NCBI RefSeq assembly: GCF_019423705.1
Contig: NZ_JAHZAX010000005.1
Location: 9,832-33,831, forward strand
Source: Ruminococcus sp.
GTDB lineage: Bacteria > Bacillota > Clostridia > Oscillospirales > Ruminococcaceae
Direction of reading: 5' to 3'
DNA: 24,000 nucleotides
Shown here: one piece after another, positions 1,585 through 21,320 of the stretch
How positions within the stretch are numbered: position 1 is the first letter of the stretch
Layout: every line of letters begins with the position of its first letter
Notes under the pieces: generated by a model
What the model saw: the letters and a program-made list of their open reading frames with translations, nothing else
The model's database searches: none
What the model was told of the DNA's origin: nothing
Translations under genes and position numbers: made by a program

Positions 1585-1613
1585 AGTATATCATATTTTA
1601 TTAAAAAGTACAA
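1585..1613 (-). promoter_or_regulatory. sigma-A type promoter for cdaA-cdaR
   Basis: Minus strand reads TTGTAC, 17 nt, TATACT (plus coordinates 1608-1613 and 1585-1590), about 70 nt upstream of the cdaA start. Confidence 0.45.
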
Positions 1614-1676
1614 GGGCAATAGCGAATTTTTTTTACATTTTTATTTGCCTTGCACAGCATTTTCAGAACAACAAAA

Positions 1677-1706
1677 AAGGACAGACCCGAAAGTCTGCCC
1701 TTAAAA
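1677..1706 (-). terminator. intrinsic terminator of the SDR gene (hairpin GGGCAGAC/GTCTGTCC plus U-tract on the minus strand)
   Basis: Minus-strand RNA reads AAGGGCAGAC-TTTCGG-GTCTGTCCTTTTTTGTTG. The stem has a G-U pair on the minus strand but an A-C mismatch on the plus strand, so it is built for minus-strand transcripts. Confidence 0.6.
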
Positions 1707-1741
1707 ATTGCTATTTTGCTTTTGCACAGTCGTATGTCAAC

Positions 1742-1765
1742 GGGCGAACGCTGTTCGCCCCTACA
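1742..1765 (-). repeat. REP-like element, CGAAC-stem variant (TGTAGGGGCGAAC-agc-GTTCGCCC)
   Basis: GTAG box immediately 5' of a perfect 8-bp GC hairpin, read on the minus strand. The 3' flank CGTTCGCCCGTT is shared with the copies at 12995 and 20722. Confidence 0.7.
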
Positions 1766-1787
1766 TATAAACAGCGTATTTACGCCA

Positions 1788-1817
1788 ATTGTAGGGGACG
1801 GCGTCCTCGACGTCCCA
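1788..1817 (+). repeat. REP-like element, 30-mer ATTGTAGGGGACGGCGTCCTCGACGTCCCA (copy 1 of 3 identical)
   Basis: Identical 30-mer at 1788-1817, 3892-3921 and 13068-13097. It has a GTAG box plus GGGACG...CGTCCC arms. Related flanks extend to ...TTTTTCAACAAGCT. Confidence 0.8.
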
Positions 1818-1844
1818 CTTTTGTCGGACTTTTTCAACAAGCTG

Positions 1845-2756: not shown

Positions 2757-2780
2757 TGTAGGGGCGACCTGTGGTCGCCC
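2757..2780 (+). repeat. REP-like element, CGACC-stem variant (TGTAGGGGCGACC-tgt-GGTCGCCC)
   Basis: GTAG box plus a perfect 8-bp hairpin, 35 nt downstream of the BSH-like gene stop. It is the exact reverse complement (23 nt) of 3847-3869. Confidence 0.75.
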
Positions 2781-3846: not shown

Positions 3847-3869
3847 GGCGACCACAGGTCGCCCCTACA
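3847..3869 (-). repeat. REP-like element, CGACC-stem variant (inverted partner of 2757-2779)
   Basis: GGCGACCACAGGTCGCCCCTACA is the reverse complement of TGTAGGGGCGACCTGTGGTCGCC. It lies in the 5' leader region of the BSH-like gene. Confidence 0.75.
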
Positions 3870-3891
3870 TAAAAATTGCTTATTTAAGCAC

Positions 3892-3921
3892 ATTGTAGGG
3901 GACGGCGTCCTCGACGTCCCA
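3892..3921 (+). repeat. REP-like 30-mer, copy 2 of 3
   Basis: Identical to 1788-1817 and 13068-13097. Together with 3847-3869 it forms an inverted REP doublet (REPIN-like) with a 24-nt spacer. Confidence 0.8.
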
Positions 3922-3967
3922 TTTGTTTGACGCTTTTTTAACAAGCTCTACTTTTATCTTTAATAAT

Positions 3968-7287: not shown

Positions 7288-10013
7288 TGGGAAAAGTATT
7301 GAGAAAACGCCTGCTCCGTGATCTAAAGAGCAATTTTATGCGCTACGCTGCTCTCGTGCTGCTTATCGTAATGGGAATGTATATCGTTGTAAGCGTTTGC
7401 GGCGCAGCGGAAACTATCATAACAGGCACAGAAAATAAATGCGTCGATAACAATTGCGAGGACGGCCAGTTCACAGTTTTCGTCCCCCTTACAGACGACC
7501 AGCTTTCACAGCTTGAGGACAAAGGCGTTATCCTCGAAAAAATGTTTTCTTTGGATATCGAGGTTAGCGGCAACAAAGTCCTCCGTGTTATGCACACCCG
7601 TGAAAAGATAAACCTTATCGACCTTGACGAGGGCAGCCTTGCAAAGTCAAATGGCGAAGTCGTTTTGGAAAAACGCTATGCAGAGGAGAATAAAATCTCC
7701 CTCGGCGATACTGTCGAAATAGCAGGGGAGAGCTTTAAGGTAACAGGCATTGGCAGCGTGCCCGATTACGACCTGCCTGTAAAAAAGCTTTCCGATACCA
7801 GCGCTTCAAGCTCCGATTTCGGCCTTGCTTTCGTGACTGACCAGCAGTATGACGATATCCTCTCGGGAACTCAACAGAAAGCCGAAGAGTATACATATGC
7901 CTATACCCTCGGCAAGAAAATGACCGATGAAAAGCTCAAGCAGGCGATAAAAGACCTCAAGTTCGATTACACAGAAGTTGACGATAAATACTTCCAAGAA
8001 ACTATCAAGGACACAGTCGGCAAAAAGGACGACCTTGTAAATGGCATTGCCGAGCTTAAAGACGGCTCAAAAGAGCTTTCCGACGGTCTTTCAGAACTTG
8101 GCGGACATAACTATGAGCTTCGCAAAGGCGCAGAAGAGATATTCAAATACTATCTCCTCCAAGCCAATACCACAGTAGATAATTTCGGCGTAACAAAGGT
8201 TCTTAAAGCCGATAACTATGCCGATATCTTAGACGAAGCTATCAAAAGCGCCGATGATGAAACATCAAAAGAAGCCCTCACCACCATAAAGTCCACCCTC
8301 GATGAGCTCAAAGCATATTCCGACGGCGTTTCAGATTATACCGACGGCGTAAGAACAGCCGCCGACGGCTCTGATGAGCTTTATGACGGCATAAGCGAAC
8401 TCAAAAGCGAAACAGATAAATTCATCGACGAAGCTTTCGATATCGACATCGCAAATCTCACCTCATTCGTAACAGCCGCCGATAACCCGAGAATACTCGG
8501 CGCAAAGGGCGACCTCGTCCTCAATAAGCAGGTGAGCCTTGTGGCAGGCGTTATCGTGATGATACTCTTTACATACGTTATCTCCGTTTTCGTTATCCAC
8601 CAAATACAGCGTGAATCAAGCGTTATAGGCGCACTTTATGCCCTCGGCGTAAAGAAAAAAGACCTTGTGAAGCACTATATGACCATGCCGACAATAGTTT
8701 CGTTCATCGGCGGCGTCATCGGCGTAATCATCGCATTCACTCCGATAGGCATTTCATACCAAATGGAAGATACCTACGCATACTCCTCTATCCCCGAATT
8801 CACCCCCTCAATGCCAGCGTATCTTATAGTTTACAGCCTTATAATGCCGCCTGTCGTTTCCGTGATCGTGAACCTGCTCGTCATCAATAAAAAGCTTTCA
8901 CGCACAGCTCTTTCCCTTATCAAAAACGAGCAGAAGATAAGCACAGGAAAGAATATCGATCTGCGAGGCAAAAGCTTTGTAACAGCTTTCAGAATACGTC
9001 AAATGCTCCGTGAAGCAAGAACAGGCCTCACAGTTGTGTTCGGTATGCTCATCTCAATGCTTATCCTTATGATCGCCGTTGACTGCTACGTCCTCTGCGA
9101 TAACGTGGAAAAAGAAACAAATTCCGATACGAAATATCAGTATATGTATTCTCTCAAATATCCCGAAAAGCAAGTTCCAAAAGGCGGCACAGCGGTCTAT
9201 ACCGAAAGCCTTTCAAAGACCTATCTCGGCTATACCCTTGACGTGTCCGTAATGGGTATCGAGGAGGGCAATAAGTATTTCAATTGCACCCCCGTCAAGG
9301 GCAAATCAAAGGTGGTGATAAGCCGTTCCGTTCAGCAGAAATACGGCATTTCCGAGGGCGATAAGCTTATCCTCACAGATAACGCCAACGAAATGGATTA
9401 TGCTTTCACAGTCAGCGGCATAGCAGACTATTCAGCAGGCCTTGCAGTCTTTATGGATATCGACAGTATGCGTGAGCTTTTCGGCCAGTCTGAGGATTAT
9501 TACAACACAGTCCTCTCCGATAAAGCCCTTGATATCGATGAGGGCAGGCTCTACGCCGTCACCACAAAGCAGAATATCGAGCGTTCATCAAGAGTGTTCG
9601 CTGACCTTATGATGCCAATGGTGGTAATGCTCACCATCGTCTCTGCAATAATCTTCTTTACCGTAATGTATCTTATGCTCAACGTGATGATAGACCGTGC
9701 CTCATTCGGAATCTCCCTTATCAAGATATTCGGCTTCCGCACCAAAGAGATAAAGAAGCTCTATCTTAACGGCAATTTCTATATCATCACCATAGGCGCA
9801 CTTATCTGCGTGCCGCTCTCAAAGGCGATCTCCGACGCTATGTACCCCTACCTCATCTCAAACGCAAGCTGCGGAATGAACCTCGCCTTCCCTTGGTATC
9901 TCTATGTGATGATCTTTGGAGGCGTCCTACTGCTTTACTTTATCATCAATAGCCTTCTCGTAAGAAAGCTCGGCAAAGTCACCCCCGCTGAGGTACTCAA
10001 AAACAGAGAATAA
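7287..10013 (+). CDS. FtsX/MacB-type ABC transporter permease, 908 aa, two FtsX modules and a large extracytoplasmic coiled-coil domain
   Basis: The N-terminus LRDLKSNFMRYAALVLLIVMGMYIVV is the typical first TM. About 390 aa of hydrophilic loop follow, then TM clusters around aa 420-540 and 575-600. A second soluble domain follows, then a C-terminal FtsX module ending VTPAEVLKNRE. Confidence 0.88.
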   Translation: MGKVLRKRLLRDLKSNFMRYAALVLLIVMGMYIVVSVCGAAETIITGTENKCVDNNCEDGQFTVFVPLTDDQLSQLEDKGVILEKMFSLDIEVSGNKVLRVMHTREKINLIDLDEGSLAKSNGEVVLEKRYAEENKISLGDTVEIAGESFKVTGIGSVPDYDLPVKKLSDTSASSSDFGLAFVTDQQYDDILSGTQQKAEEYTYAYTLGKKMTDEKLKQAIKDLKFDYTEVDDKYFQETIKDTVGKKDDLVNGIAELKDGSKELSDGLSELGGHNYELRKGAEEIFKYYLLQANTTVDNFGVTKVLKADNYADILDEAIKSADDETSKEALTTIKSTLDELKAYSDGVSDYTDGVRTAADGSDELYDGISELKSETDKFIDEAFDIDIANLTSFVTAADNPRILGAKGDLVLNKQVSLVAGVIVMILFTYVISVFVIHQIQRESSVIGALYALGVKKKDLVKHYMTMPTIVSFIGGVIGVIIAFTPIGISYQMEDTYAYSSIPEFTPSMPAYLIVYSLIMPPVVSVIVNLLVINKKLSRTALSLIKNEQKISTGKNIDLRGKSFVTAFRIRQMLREARTGLTVVFGMLISMLILMIAVDCYVLCDNVEKETNSDTKYQYMYSLKYPEKQVPKGGTAVYTESLSKTYLGYTLDVSVMGIEEGNKYFNCTPVKGKSKVVISRSVQQKYGISEGDKLILTDNANEMDYAFTVSGIADYSAGLAVFMDIDSMRELFGQSEDYYNTVLSDKALDIDEGRLYAVTTKQNIERSSRVFADLMMPMVVMLTIVSAIIFFTVMYLMLNVMIDRASFGISLIKIFGFRTKEIKKLYLNGNFYIITIGALICVPLSKAISDAMYPYLISNASCGMNLAFPWYLYVMIFGGVLLLYFIINSLLVRKLGKVTPAEVLKNRE

Positions 10014-10045
10014 CACCATAATTTTAAGTTGAAACAAGCCCCCAT

Positions 10046-10114
10046 CGCCGCACCATAATATGCGAAAAACGTCGCAACTAAGCGCTTTTTGCAGTATGGT
10101 GCGGCGTTTGTCTT
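10046..10114 (+). terminator. long-stem terminator after the ABC operon
   Basis: CGCCGCACCATA (10046-10057) pairs perfectly with TATGGTGCGGCG (10095-10106), followed by TTTGTCTT. The interior can pair further. Confidence 0.6.
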
Positions 10115-10217
10115 GTAATACTATGGATAATGACGGCTTGAAGTTTAATTGTTACAAATATGCGCAGAATGGGTGTAATTATGTTATGCTTGTTACAACC
10201 TAAAGGAGGTAATGGAT

Positions 10218-10361
10218 ATGACAAACATCATCAAGAAGTACAGCACATTTATCGCAGCATTCGCAGTAACAGTCACAGCAATGGTCGCAAATTCAGCTTG
10301 CTGTTTCTGTATTAATCAGCCAAAAATGCCTGAGGGTTCAAAGAAACTCCGTAAGTTCTGA
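10218..10361 (+). CDS. agrD: AgrD-type cyclic-lactone autoinducer peptide precursor (47 aa)
   Basis: Too short for the ORF track. AAGGAGG (10203-10209), 8 nt, ATG 10218. The stop TGA (10359-10361) shares one nucleotide with the agrB ATG. Translation is MTNIIKKYSTFIAAFAVTVTAMVANSACCFCINQPKMPEGSKKLRKF, giving a hydrophobic leader, a Cys core and a Pro-containing charged tail. An in-frame ATG at 10212 is too close to the RBS. Confidence 0.8.
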   Translation: MTNIIKKYSTFIAAFAVTVTAMVANSACCFCINQPKMPEGSKKLRKF

Positions 10362-12994: not shown

Positions 12995-13047
12995 GGGCGA
13001 ACGTAAATTGTTGAGAGCTTTGTCGAACAACAATTTGCGCCCCTGCC
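12995..13047 (-). repeat. extended two-tier REP-like element (degenerate GGCA box)
   Basis: Minus strand reads GGCAGGGGCGC-AAATTGTTG-ttcgacaaagctct-CAACAATTT-ACGTTCGCCCGTTA. Outer GC arms flank an inner 9-bp AT stem. It is homologous to 20722-20774. Confidence 0.6.
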
Positions 13048-13067: not shown

Positions 13068-13097
13068 ATTGTAGGGGACGGCGTCCTCGACGTCCCA
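13068..13097 (+). repeat. REP-like 30-mer, copy 3 of 3
   Basis: Identical to 1788-1817 and 3892-3921. It forms an inverted doublet with 12995-13047. Confidence 0.8.
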
Positions 13098-19216: not shown

Positions 19217-20509
19217 TTACTTGTTGAGAGGGCTTTCTCTGTAAATGATATCCTCTCTCTTTGGTCCGTTTGAAACCATTGTGATAGGGAAGCCGATCTG
19301 CTGCTCAACGAAGTCGATGTACTTCTTGCAGTTCTCAGGAAGATCTTCGTAATTCTTGATACCTCTGATATCAGTCTTCCAGCCGTCAAGTACCTTGAGT
19401 ACAGGCTTTGCCCTTTCGAGCTTCTGAGTTGTAGGGAAGTCAGTCGTAACTTCGCCGTCGATCTCATAGCCAACACATACAGGTATCTTGTCAAGATATC
19501 CCAGTACGTCAACAACTGTAAACGCAACGTCAGTTGTGCCCTGGATACGGCAGCCGTACTTAGTTGCAACGCAGTCGAACCAGCCCATTCTTCTTGGTCT
19601 GCCTGTTGTTGCGCCGAACTCACCGCCGTCGCCGCCTCTCTTTCTCAGCTCGTCAGCCTCGTCACCGAATATCTCGGAAACGAATGCACCTGCGCCAACT
19701 GCGGAAGAATAAGCCTTTACAACAGTAACGATAGTCTTGATCTCATATGGTGGGATACCTGCGCCGATAGCGCCGTAGGCTGCCAGAGTTGAAGAAGAAG
19801 TTACCATTGGATAAATGCCGTGGTCAGGGTCTTTAAGAGAACCGAGCTGACCTTCGAGAAGAACGTTCTTGCCTTCCTTGATAGCGTTCCAAAGATAAGC
19901 GGAAACATCGCAAACATAAGGTGCTACCATTTCCTTGTATTCCATAAGCGTATTGAAAAGCTCGTCAGCGTCGATAGCAGGCTTGTGATAAAGGTGCTCG
20001 AGAAGAATGTTCTTAGTCTCGAGAACTCTCTTGATCTTCACCTTGAGGTTTTCCTCGTCAAACAACTCCTGCACCTGGAAGCCGATCTTAGCGTATTTAT
20101 CAGAATAGAAAGGAGCAATACCCGACTTAGTTGAACCGAAACTAGCCTTTCCAAGTCTTTCCTCTTCGTACTGATCGAAAAGAACGTGATAAGGCATAAC
20201 CATCTGAGCTCTGTCAGAAATAAGTATCTTAGGCATAGGAACGCCCTCAGAAGTTACCTTTTTCAGTTCGTTGAAGAATACAGGTATATTAAGTGCAACA
20301 CCGTTACCGATAATATTAGTTGTATGGTCATAGAAAACGCCTGACGGAAGAGTATGCAAAGCGAACTTACCATAGTGATTTACAATAGTATGACCAGCAT
20401 TAGCGCCGCCCTGGAATCTTACAACGATATCTGATTTCTCAGCCAACATATCAGTAAGCTTACCCTTACCTTCATCGCCCCAGTTTGCACCAACAATCGC
20501 TCTAACCAT
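19217..20509 (-). CDS. purA: adenylosuccinate synthase
   Basis: Motifs are GANWGDEGKGK, GGANAGHT and GATTGRPRRMGWFD. I chose ATG 20509 (MVRAIVGANWGDEGKG), 9 nt after AAGGAGG; the track start at 20530 lies upstream of the RBS. Confidence 0.95.
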   Translation of the reverse strand: MVRAIVGANWGDEGKGKLTDMLAEKSDIVVRFQGGANAGHTIVNHYGKFALHTLPSGVFYDHTTNIIGNGVALNIPVFFNELKKVTSEGVPMPKILISDRAQMVMPYHVLFDQYEEERLGKASFGSTKSGIAPFYSDKYAKIGFQVQELFDEENLKVKIKRVLETKNILLEHLYHKPAIDADELFNTLMEYKEMVAPYVCDVSAYLWNAIKEGKNVLLEGQLGSLKDPDHGIYPMVTSSSTLAAYGAIGAGIPPYEIKTIVTVVKAYSSAVGAGAFVSEIFGDEADELRKRGGDGGEFGATTGRPRRMGWFDCVATKYGCRIQGTTDVAFTVVDVLGYLDKIPVCVGYEIDGEVTTDFPTTQKLERAKPVLKVLDGWKTDIRGIKNYEDLPENCKKYIDFVEQQIGFPITMVSNGPKREDIIYRESPLNK

Positions 20510-20604
20510 TAATTTTTTCCTCCTTGCCATAAAACAGCAAAATAATTGGCAGCAAGAAATATGTAACGCTCTGAAAAAACAGGAAGCAATACTGCCACTA
20601 GGAT

Positions 20605-20633
20605 ATTATAGCACAAAACTATTTCCGTGTAAA
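20605..20633 (-). promoter_or_regulatory. promoter of purA
   Basis: Minus strand reads TTTACA, 17 nt, TATAAT (plus 20628-20633 and 20605-20610). An AT-rich stretch lies upstream. Confidence 0.55.
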
Positions 20634-20721
20634 CACCCTTTTAAACATTTAACAATTTACTCATATTTTAAAGGGGGGCGACAAATCAAATTTGCATACT
20701 TTTACATCGTGCGTTACTAAC

Positions 20722-20774
20722 GGGCGAACGATAAATTGTTGTGAGCGTAGTCGAACCACAATTTTCCCCCCTAC
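20722..20774 (-). repeat. extended two-tier REP-like element (GTAG box present)
   Basis: Minus strand reads GGTAGGGGGGAAAATTGTGGTTCGACTACGCTCACAACAATTTATCGTTCGCCCGTTAG, about 80 percent identical to 12995-13047 by eye. Confidence 0.6.
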
Positions 20775-21106
20775 CATCTGTTGTGCATTATCACCAATTT
20801 CGATAGCGCCAATTTGTGCAAACAAATGATTTATAATTTAATTTGATAACATCCCTGCAATTGTTGCATTTTTAATGCAACTTATCACCAATTTTTCGGG
20901 ATAAGTAGAAAGACATTTGTAGAGTGGCGAGGGAAACTTGTTGGACTGAGGTCTTAGGAAACCCGAAGGGAGGTTTTGTCCGGCGCATCTAAGGACTTGC
21001 ACCCAAATGTTGAGACGAAATCATAAACCTGCGTGTGCGCACAATTTTAAAGCGCAGCTTTACGACGTAATCTCCGCCCAGCAACTTGAAAATTGAATAT
21101 TGACCA

Positions 21107-21129
21107 GTAGGGGCGCACAGCGTGCGCAC
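21107..21129 (+). repeat. degenerate REP-like element (GTAGGGGCGCAC-agc-GTGCGCAC)
   Basis: GTAG box plus a 6-bp GC hairpin. The outer G/C arms are not complementary. Confidence 0.45.
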
Positions 21130-21225
21130 GTGGTTTGTCGCTTTATTTTGACAGACTGTCAATTGCGATAAATCGCCAAACGCATAGCGTATCACAATAT
21201 TTGTTATAAAAATCGCAAAAGGGTG

Positions 21226-21254
21226 TTGCATAATTGATTGATTTGTATTATAAT
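21226..21254 (+). promoter_or_regulatory. promoter of the 372-aa lipoprotein gene
   Basis: TTGCAT (21226-21231), 17 nt, TATAAT (21249-21254). Confidence 0.55.
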
Positions 21255-21320
21255 AGTATAAATATTTGATTTAAATTCTAACAAAACGAAATAAAAACGC
21301 AAAGAACGGAGACAAAAGCT

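Follow-up and report, generated by a model that had tools for sequence, protein, structure and literature searches.

Introduction

Among described systems, the repetitive extragenic palindromes (REPs) of Escherichia coli come closest to the elements considered here. In E. coli, a GC-rich imperfect palindrome has a 5' GTAG directly at its foot, several REP types share one genome, and different types are joined by short linkers into the heterotypic inverted pairs and clusters known as bacterial interspersed mosaic elements (BIMEs). The associated enzyme, TnpA-REP (a REP-associated tyrosine transposase, or RAYT, also called YafM; PDB 4ER8), is a single-copy HUH/Y1 protein with a Y..NP motif and a WQ...(E/D)H..R segment. 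We find these same features in a family of GTAG-tagged hairpin repeats that recurs through a 24,000-nucleotide stretch of a Ruminococcus sp. genome (NCBI RefSeq assembly GCF_019423705.1, contig NZ_JAHZAX010000005.1, positions 9,832 to 33,831; this whole stretch is hereafter the window), and in the RAYT genes of its relatives. The repeats of the window are very probably REPs of the GTAG-tagged superfamily with a RAYT as their cognate enzyme. A first-pass annotation of the window had proposed the REP/RAYT interpretation, and our analysis supports it as essentially right. The system is unlike that of E. coli in its host, a Gram-positive anaerobe, in an enzyme that is ~23% identical over the fold alignment, in having REPs inside the RAYT reading frame and not flanking it only, and in the position of the RAYT gene within a dnaA-recF-gyrB cluster in four lineages.

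Several other systems share part of this anatomy. The anatomy of our repeats fits the GTAG REP superfamily described by Di Nocera et al. 2013 (PMC3733652), a paper whose text covers 24 families from 8 phyla without naming Firmicutes. The REP doublets forming hairpins (REPINs) and RAYTs of Pseudomonas fluorescens (Bertels and Rainey 2011) likewise combine short GTAG-tagged palindromes, frequent inverted pairs and a link to a vertically inherited single-copy RAYT. A P. fluorescens REPIN, however, consists of two near-identical REPs in one long hairpin, whereas the doublets of the window are heterotypic and fold separately; the only REPIN-like pairs that we found are those inside RAYT genes. Intragenic REPs and the Rickettsia palindromic elements (PMC3733652) are also short palindromic repeats able to sit in frame, in loops. 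Unlike them, the window copies are all extragenic, and the regular in-frame site in relatives is the RAYT gene itself. With the insertion sequences (ISs) of the IS200/IS605 family (IS608, ISDra2) the system would share the HUH/Y1 fold and hairpin recognition on single-stranded DNA, but it has Y..NP in place of Y..Q, no multicopy IS, no tnpB, and repeats of 27 nt that stand alone.

Also close is tnpA-REP subclass 2.4 of Quentin et al. 2018 (PMC6006769), which is RAYT Group 4 of Bertels et al. 2017 and has as its hallmarks in-frame REPs in tnpA-REP genes and REPs with a three-G-C foot. Our system resembles this subclass in the three G-C pairs at the foot, in the lack of a C-terminal extension, and in frame-keeping REP insertions in the variable region after the HUH strand (beta3 to alphaC), so that REPs internal to the gene are not new in kind. 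It differs in that subclass 2.4 was described mainly from Cyanobacteria and Bacteroidetes and has a median HUH-to-Y distance of 88 aa, against ~63-66 aa here. Residue 100 is D here, a trait reported for subclasses 2.5 and 2.7. The insertions here also form a regular inverted pair in two fixed loops (58 of 80 genes).

Nearly all work on REP/RAYT systems has dealt with Proteobacteria, apart from surveys that cover Cyanobacteria and Bacteroidetes. Clostridial Group 1 RAYTs are mentioned without a REP link by Bertels et al. 2017, and beyond that paper and Quentin et al. 2018 the searchable literature yielded no description of REP/RAYT systems in Firmicutes/Bacillota, Ruminococcus or Clostridia. 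The family described here is widespread in the Clostridia of rumen, gut and termites.

Results

GTAG-tagged hairpins recur in the window and across related genomes

The DNA of the window is chromosomal and stems from a Clostridia-like organism with 46% G+C. The heptamer GTAGGGG occurs in it nine times, against 1.05 +/- 0.9 expected, a count that 0 of 100 dinucleotide-preserving shuffles reached. Eight of the nine matches are intergenic repeat copies that the first-pass annotation had listed; the other, at 9845-9851 within an FtsX-like gene, is without a hairpin and is a chance match. All nine listed copies are present where that annotation had placed them. The tag of the copy at 12995-13047 reads GCAGGGG, so that GTAG is found in eight of nine copies, 0-1 nt from the stem. 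Intergenic DNA makes up ~3.6 kb (15%) of the window, as tallied from the coordinates of open reading frames (ORFs), and all nine copies are intergenic, spread over five of ~14 intergenic regions. Folded as single-stranded DNA, six copies (1742-65, 1790-1816, 2757-80, 3847-69, 3894-3920 and 13070-96) form the hairpins claimed for them, with z = -3.6 to -4.6 and 0-1 of 200 shuffles equally stable. Folding is weaker for two copies of a longer type (12995-13047, z = -2.2; 20722-75, z = -1.3) and for the copy at 21107-29, the stem of which is mismatched (z = -1.5). The REPs had no Rfam match, either at the gathering threshold or at E <= 1.

The same combination of tag and hairpin holds far beyond the window. 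Across 886 kb, made up of the window and related loci, GTAG is the tetramer directly 5' of 164 flanks of perfect hairpins (stem of at least 7 bp), a 48-fold enrichment against 5-fold for the runner-up. Most of the GTAG-flanked hairpins in these 886 kb differ from the 27-mer, TGTAGGGGACGGCGTCCTCGACGTCCC, that seeded the collection, and their stems are diverse (GGGCGGAT, GGGAGGGG, GGGCGATT, GGGCGCAC, GGGCGAAC and GGGCGACC, among others); the GGGCGCAC class recurs in other genomes and within the RAYT genes of loci L151 and L193.

That the stems vary while remaining complementary, which the first-pass annotation had taken as a sign of selection on structure, was confirmed by two tests in which sites were chosen without use of pairing, as a guard against circularity. 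Among 256 sites with the loop GCGTCCYCGA, GTAG stands exactly 6 nt upstream in 242, and 234 have a perfect Watson-Crick stem of 6 bp, in 12 different paired versions. Of 157 unique sites containing GTAGGGGCG, 140 form 7-8 of the 8 stem pairs, stem positions 6-8 being filled by 12 different triplets, and 53% are perfect, against 7% after arms were swapped between sites. The hairpin structure is thus under selection, and the claim of a GTAG box 5' of a structurally conserved hairpin is upheld by the 48-fold enrichment and the loop-anchored stem tests alike.

The exact 27-mer is found in 7 IMG/VR contigs and, among the matches listed, in more than 116 stretches of GTDB species genomes, in unrelated flanks. 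Its hosts include six R. flavefaciens strains, many metagenome-assembled genomes (MAGs) from rumen and gut (Ruminococcus, Oscillospiraceae, Acutalibacteraceae, Ructibacterium and Faecousia), Bacillota of the termite gut, and two MAGs that bear the label Leptolinea. Across 141 copies from other genomes, conservation stops sharply at T(-1) and G(+26), from which we take the REP unit to be 27-28 nt long and set in unrelated flanks; the T-rich tails seen in the window are not conserved outside its genome in this comparison. Two of the IMG/VR sequences, classed as viral, carry dense arrays of mixed REP types (L003:3230-5510 and L006:140-4180) that give rise to long spurious ORFs, and locus L051 holds a tandem duplication of 3 x 59 nt that contains the 27-mer.

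In the related loci, stop-to-stop ORFs of at least 200 aa contain ~30% of elements, compared with 78% of random positions. By type of spacer, and with crude gene calls, REP density is 2.4/kb between convergent genes, 2.3/kb between unidirectional genes and 1.1/kb between divergent genes. The same strain as that of the window has 10 REPs in 41.8 kb, or ~0.24/kb, a density that extrapolates to more than the handful of copies genome-wide that would have spoken against the proposal, and the flanks of RAYT loci, which were chosen independently of REPs, give a similar ~0.2/kb.

The associated enzyme belongs to the TnpA-REP family

No RAYT match was found among the ORFs of the window, in keeping with the earlier remark that it contains no transposase gene. 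The Y1/RAYT link suspected there was found in relatives, where RAYT homologues are abundant and carry identical REP sequences. A search with E. coli YafM and IS200 queries gave five ORFs in loci holding the 27-mer; these count as leads only and were then validated by NCBIfam, Pfam, PDB and fold searches. The ORFs match NCBIfam NF047646 (REP_Tyr_transpos; E = 1.5e-22, 80.1 bits against a cut-off of 80) and Pfam Y1_Tnp. Their sole sequence match in the PDB is 4ER8, E. coli TnpA-REP, with HxH and Y..NP aligned, and in the GTAG-reading segment WQ..DH.IR aligns with WQ..EH.IR of the E. coli enzyme. An AlphaFold model of the homologue P0004 (pLDDT 71.7) likewise has 4ER8 as its top fold match (TM 0.58-0.61), followed by IS200/IS605 TnpAs at ranks 2-30. 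Judged by these matches, the ~170-aa enzyme is a TnpA-REP family member that keeps the GTAG-reading residues.

The family comprises at least 1408 protein clusters at E <= 1e-10, of which some already bear the name 'REP element-mobilizing transposase RayT' in some sources. Several paralogues occur in R. flavefaciens. In a set of 80 RAYT loci taken from metagenomes by protein patterns that are not encoded by REPs, HUH and Y..NP are intact in 76. The RAYT-bearing contigs P0047 and P0004 were considered as candidates for the window's own species and rejected: they share no samples with it and have a GC content of 42-44% against 46%, so that they probably belong to other species. A blastn comparison of the window with all loci collected likewise gave no orthologous overlap.

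RAYT genes carry their own REPs in frame

In isolate R. flavefaciens Y1, a RAYT gene (FRCT01000001.1:24868-25437) coexists with extragenic 27-mers (loci L011 and L111). Unexpectedly, the 27-mer itself sits in frame within RAYT genes, where its forward orientation encodes VGDGVLDVP and its reverse GTSRTPSPT. GTAG hairpins lie within 70 of the 80 metagenomic RAYT genes, at 3.3/kb inside the gene against ~0.2/kb beyond 500 bp, and in 75 of the 80 loci REPs are inside the gene or at most 250 bp away. In 19 of 70 cases, where 1.9 would be expected, the internal REP is of the same type as extragenic REPs at that locus.

The internal copies are placed with great regularity. In 58 of the 80 genes a forward copy at ~+105-117 nt and a reverse copy of the same REP type at ~+276-300 nt bracket the HUH-coding segment (for example L206:3114-3320 and L212:829-1020, among loci L137-L216). 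The type of this pair varies from gene to gene across the 58, while its two arms differ by at most 2 nt in 50 of them; the inverted repeat does not extend beyond GTAG, spacers are most often 145 nt long, and the frame of reading does not vary. The two internal REPs show up as GC islands within the RAYT gene in AT-rich hosts. In the AlphaFold model, low-confidence loops hold the REP-encoded peptides: one is in the hairpin that follows beta1, the other between the HUH strand and the helix after it. Some genes have mixed types, or three REPs stacked at site 1 (P0036, P0011, P0061), which indicates turnover at these sites.

In four lineages, R. flavefaciens Y1 among them, the gene order is dnaA-dnaN-S4-recF-remB-[RAYT]-gyrB-gyrA, and a RAYT gene bearing the 27-mer abuts or overlaps gyrB (L016:209-838; L223:4001-4591; L233:4001-4522; L242:5001-5570). 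The RAYT paralogues of L021 and L066 are located elsewhere than in this origin cluster. No fixed internal pair, concerted evolution of two such arms or position in the origin cluster is described in the searchable literature.

Three REP types in the window

The nine copies of the window, here called A to I, fall into three types. The simple type (A, C, D and I) consists of TGTAG, an 8-bp stem and a 3-nt loop. Copy A (1742-1765, minus strand) reads TGTAG followed by GGGCGAAC-AGC-GTTCGCCC and folds as DNA with -9.2 kcal/mol (z = -4.45). Copy C (2757-2780, plus strand), with TGTAG and GGGCGACC-TGT-GGTCGCCC (z = -3.93), lies 34 nt 3' of the stop codon of the bile-salt-hydrolase gene and is a perfect inverted copy of 3847-3869, which is copy D (minus strand; z = -4.61), of the same sequence and with a 7-bp stem. 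Copy I (21107-21129, plus strand) has GTAG and GGGCGCAC-AGC-GTGCGCAC, with 7 of 8 pairs formed (z = -1.49).

The 27-mer type, TGTAGGGGACGGCGTCCTCGACGTCCC, has a 6-bp stem and a 10-nt loop and is represented by copies B (1790-1816; TGTAG and GGGACG-GCGTCCTCGA-CGTCCC, z = -3.59), E (3894-3920, z = -4.13) and G (13070-13096, z = -4.13), all on the plus strand and identical over 30 nt. The stems that the first-pass annotation gave, namely GGGCGAAC/GTTCGCCC, GGGCGACC/GGTCGCCC and GGGACG/CGTCCC, are those we find.

The long type (F and H, both on the minus strand) has a 33-nt nested palindrome within the REP hairpin. In copy F (12995-13047; z = -2.15), GCAG is followed by a GGGCG..CGCCC stem around that palindrome (AAATTGTTG...CAACAATTT). 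Copy H (20722-20775; z = -1.26) is 84% identical to F over 44 nt and keeps the palindrome within a decayed outer stem. Four copies of the nested palindrome, AAAATTGTTGTTCGACAAGGCTCACAACAATTT, were found, all within REP hairpins and all in this species (window 13004-13036 and 20732-20764; L217:13339-13371; L130:21-53); we read it either as a REP variant with a long loop or as a minute element inserting into REPs.

Doublets are heterotypic and resemble BIMEs

Six of the copies form three doublets (A with B, D with E, F with G) whose GTAG boxes point inward, an arrangement that is 'TT' in the terms of Di Nocera and was called 'head-to-head' in the first-pass annotation. In the composite doublet 1 (1743-1843), a 24-nt linker containing a small hairpin joins copy A to copy B, after which comes a T-rich tail ending in AACAAGCT; doublet 2 (3847-3947) has the same order of copy D, linker, copy E and tail. 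The two are direct repeats with 81% identity over 101 nt and bracket the genes for a short-chain dehydrogenase/reductase (SDR) and the bile salt hydrolase. Conservation of linker and tail, at 81% between doublets 1 and 2, is weak in doublet 3, and this comparison covers the three heterotypic inverted examples of the window. The facing GTAG boxes of the three doublets were thus correctly described, whereas the right flank TTTTTYAACAAGCT that had been called conserved is so in this genome only.

The doublets had also been labelled REPIN-like, and this label we reject. Each pairs two different REP types, doublet 1 folds as three separate hairpins (z = -5.07), and in related loci 185 of 197 neighbouring pairs at most 150 nt apart are heterotypic, in head-to-tail (HT, 99), head-to-head (HH, 65) and tail-to-tail (TT, 33) orientation; 112 of 417 elements there are single. 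Being heterotypic and separately folding, the doublets of the window resemble the BIMEs of E. coli and not REPINs.

Doublet 1 is itself bracketed by a perfect direct repeat of 30 nt. The first copy (1677-1706) holds the terminator hairpin of the SDR gene and is followed by a T-run on the minus strand, and the second (1845-1874) is the same hairpin without the T-run, which only the cdaA-proximal copy has kept. Overlapping the terminator copy upstream of cdaA is a sub-threshold Rfam match to RsaF, a Staphylococcus aureus small RNA (window 1587-1708, minus strand; 34.9 bits against a gathering threshold of 60, E = 0.0016), which is probably due to chance.

Strains and assemblies break at REPs

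The spacer between the SDR gene and cdaA is identical in other assemblies of the same strain. In strain L130/L222 a GH43 gene replaces the hydrolase/SDR pair, and homology breaks exactly at the GT/AG junction of copy B (1791). The diverged strain L221 has the doublet in the opposite orientation and one terminator hairpin only. Short-read contigs of the window's organism end at REP sites, and a Logan contig end lies inside copy G, at ~13075 as judged from contig coordinates.

Discussion

The REP unit is 23-28 nt of (T)GTAG followed directly by a hairpin with a GGG/CCC foot, and these Oscillospirales (Ruminococcus, Oscillospiraceae, Acutalibacteraceae) harbor several co-resident REP types, mostly intergenic and often beside a different type. 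In the mechanism that we favour, the cognate enzyme is a short (~170 aa) RAYT (RAYT/TnpA-REP), an HUH-Y1 nuclease. By analogy with E. coli TnpA-REP and IS200/IS605 TnpA, the RAYT may bind the folded hairpin on single-stranded DNA and read the 5' GTAG, and by cutting and rejoining the strand it may cause the elements to spread and to be homogenised. We infer RAYT catalysis and REP mobility from these better known enzymes, and the strain breakpoints at REP edges are an indirect sign of RAYT-dependent mobilisation. The window copies may in addition serve the host, for example in stabilising transcript 3' ends or in termination.

Such service might also be the whole explanation: hairpins selected by the host and not mobilised by a RAYT, whether as 3'-end stabilisers and terminators or as sites for nucleoid, gyrase or uptake proteins, the copies inside RAYT genes being secondary. 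The enrichment of REPs in convergent and unidirectional spacers would suit such a role, as would the three 27-mers of the window that precede T-rich tails and score as terminator-like, the placement of copy C just past the hydrolase stop codon, and the exact conservation of the 27-mer across families. We nonetheless regard this explanation as improbable, since the T-rich tails are not conserved beyond this genome, several copies lie in divergent spacers or are wrongly oriented for the upstream gene, GTAG stays constant beside freely varying stems, as is characteristic of TnpA-REP recognition, and each RAYT gene holds its own REP type. A host role and RAYT mobilisation are in any case compatible with each other.

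The repeats could also be parts of conventional mobile elements, either subterminal hairpins of an IS200/IS605 element or a miniature transposon of the MITE class with terminal inverted repeats, in which case the 101-nt doublet would be the mobile unit. The 81% identity of doublets 1 and 2, the target-duplication-like 30-nt repeat around doublet 1 and the reversed doublet of the diverged strain all lend this some color, but it is highly improbable: conservation of the 27-mer is confined to its 27-28-nt unit, close neighbours are heterotypic and occur in all orientations, the copies have no neighbouring tnpA or tnpB ORF (all Y1 genes found are single genes of RAYT type), no terminal inverted repeats extend past TGTAGGGG, and the 30-nt duplication occurs at one site only. 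The sharp edges of the unit, the lack of a nearby IS transposase and the single duplication speak against a MITE or IS terminus. We give almost no credence to chance palindromes or to a decayed CRISPR array. The three 27-mers at a 59-nt period in L051 have the look of such an array, but they are a tandem duplication with identical 'spacers', and this is the sole periodic case; the copies of the window are scattered over 19 kb and differ in orientation and type, and the shuffle statistics exclude chance.

Some observations nevertheless weigh against a REP/RAYT system. The window has no RAYT gene, nor do the 41.8 kb recovered from the same strain; in the contigs L217 and L220, where the scan of the DNA covered REPs, the called genes include no match to Y1_Tnp. 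The doublets of the window are not self-complementary REPINs, the 30-nt duplication around doublet 1 is no known product of HUH transposition, and two of the five REP-bearing spacers of the window lie between divergent genes, an unusual position for REPs. The identity of the 27-mer across families could also reflect selection for a host function. Most of our statistics come from loci that were chosen for holding the 27-mer, which biases their REP density, and the genome-wide copy number of several hundred is an extrapolation from the 10 copies in 41.8 kb.

Features that deserve follow-up are the internal REP pair, which is fixed, the gene's place in the origin cluster, and how very widely a single 27-mer has spread. 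It is possible, if rather unlikely, that the Oscillospirales RAYT is a syntenic member of the origin cluster and not a stray domesticated transposase, and that its in-frame inverted pair of cognate REPs is functional. The pair could then be a protected master copy that templates the genomic REPs; alternatively, it could be a self-regulating module, acting as a long-range RNA or DNA stem or as a RAYT binding site, that ties REP processing to replication.

Since each RAYT gene contains in frame the REP type particular to it, sequence alone is enough to match enzyme with substrate, and such matching would yield many natural, predicted hairpin-specific single-stranded-DNA nucleases with known targets. 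The repeats also lie at breakpoints of strain-level rearrangement beside the bile-salt-hydrolase/SDR pair, and as the short-read contigs of this organism end at them, the REP family may fragment metagenome assemblies more widely.

Other features of the window

The genes of the window include cdaA, the SDR gene, choloylglycine (bile-salt) hydrolase, a phospholipase D (PLD)-type synthase, TetR/ABC/FtsX genes, agrB, a GNAT gene, hydrolases, VanY, a GH2-like gene, dprA, purA and a ClpP-like gene. Within the 790-bp divergent spacer between purA and a 372-aa gene, Logan unitigs skip the stretch 20920-21064, stopping at the first of these positions and resuming at the second; the skipped stretch, which has no Rfam match, may be repeated or variable. 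On neither strand did the region 20905-21105 give a fold signal (z = +1.45 and -0.07). Cumulative GC skew has its minimum at ~20000-21300, the most AT-rich part of the window (40% G+C), where genes switch from mainly the minus strand to the plus strand. Beside agrB, at 10014-10360, lies a 47-aa gene that is called in another assembly of the same strain (L220:1158-1301) and that, from its size and position alone, is likely to encode an AgrD-type precursor of an autoinducing peptide.

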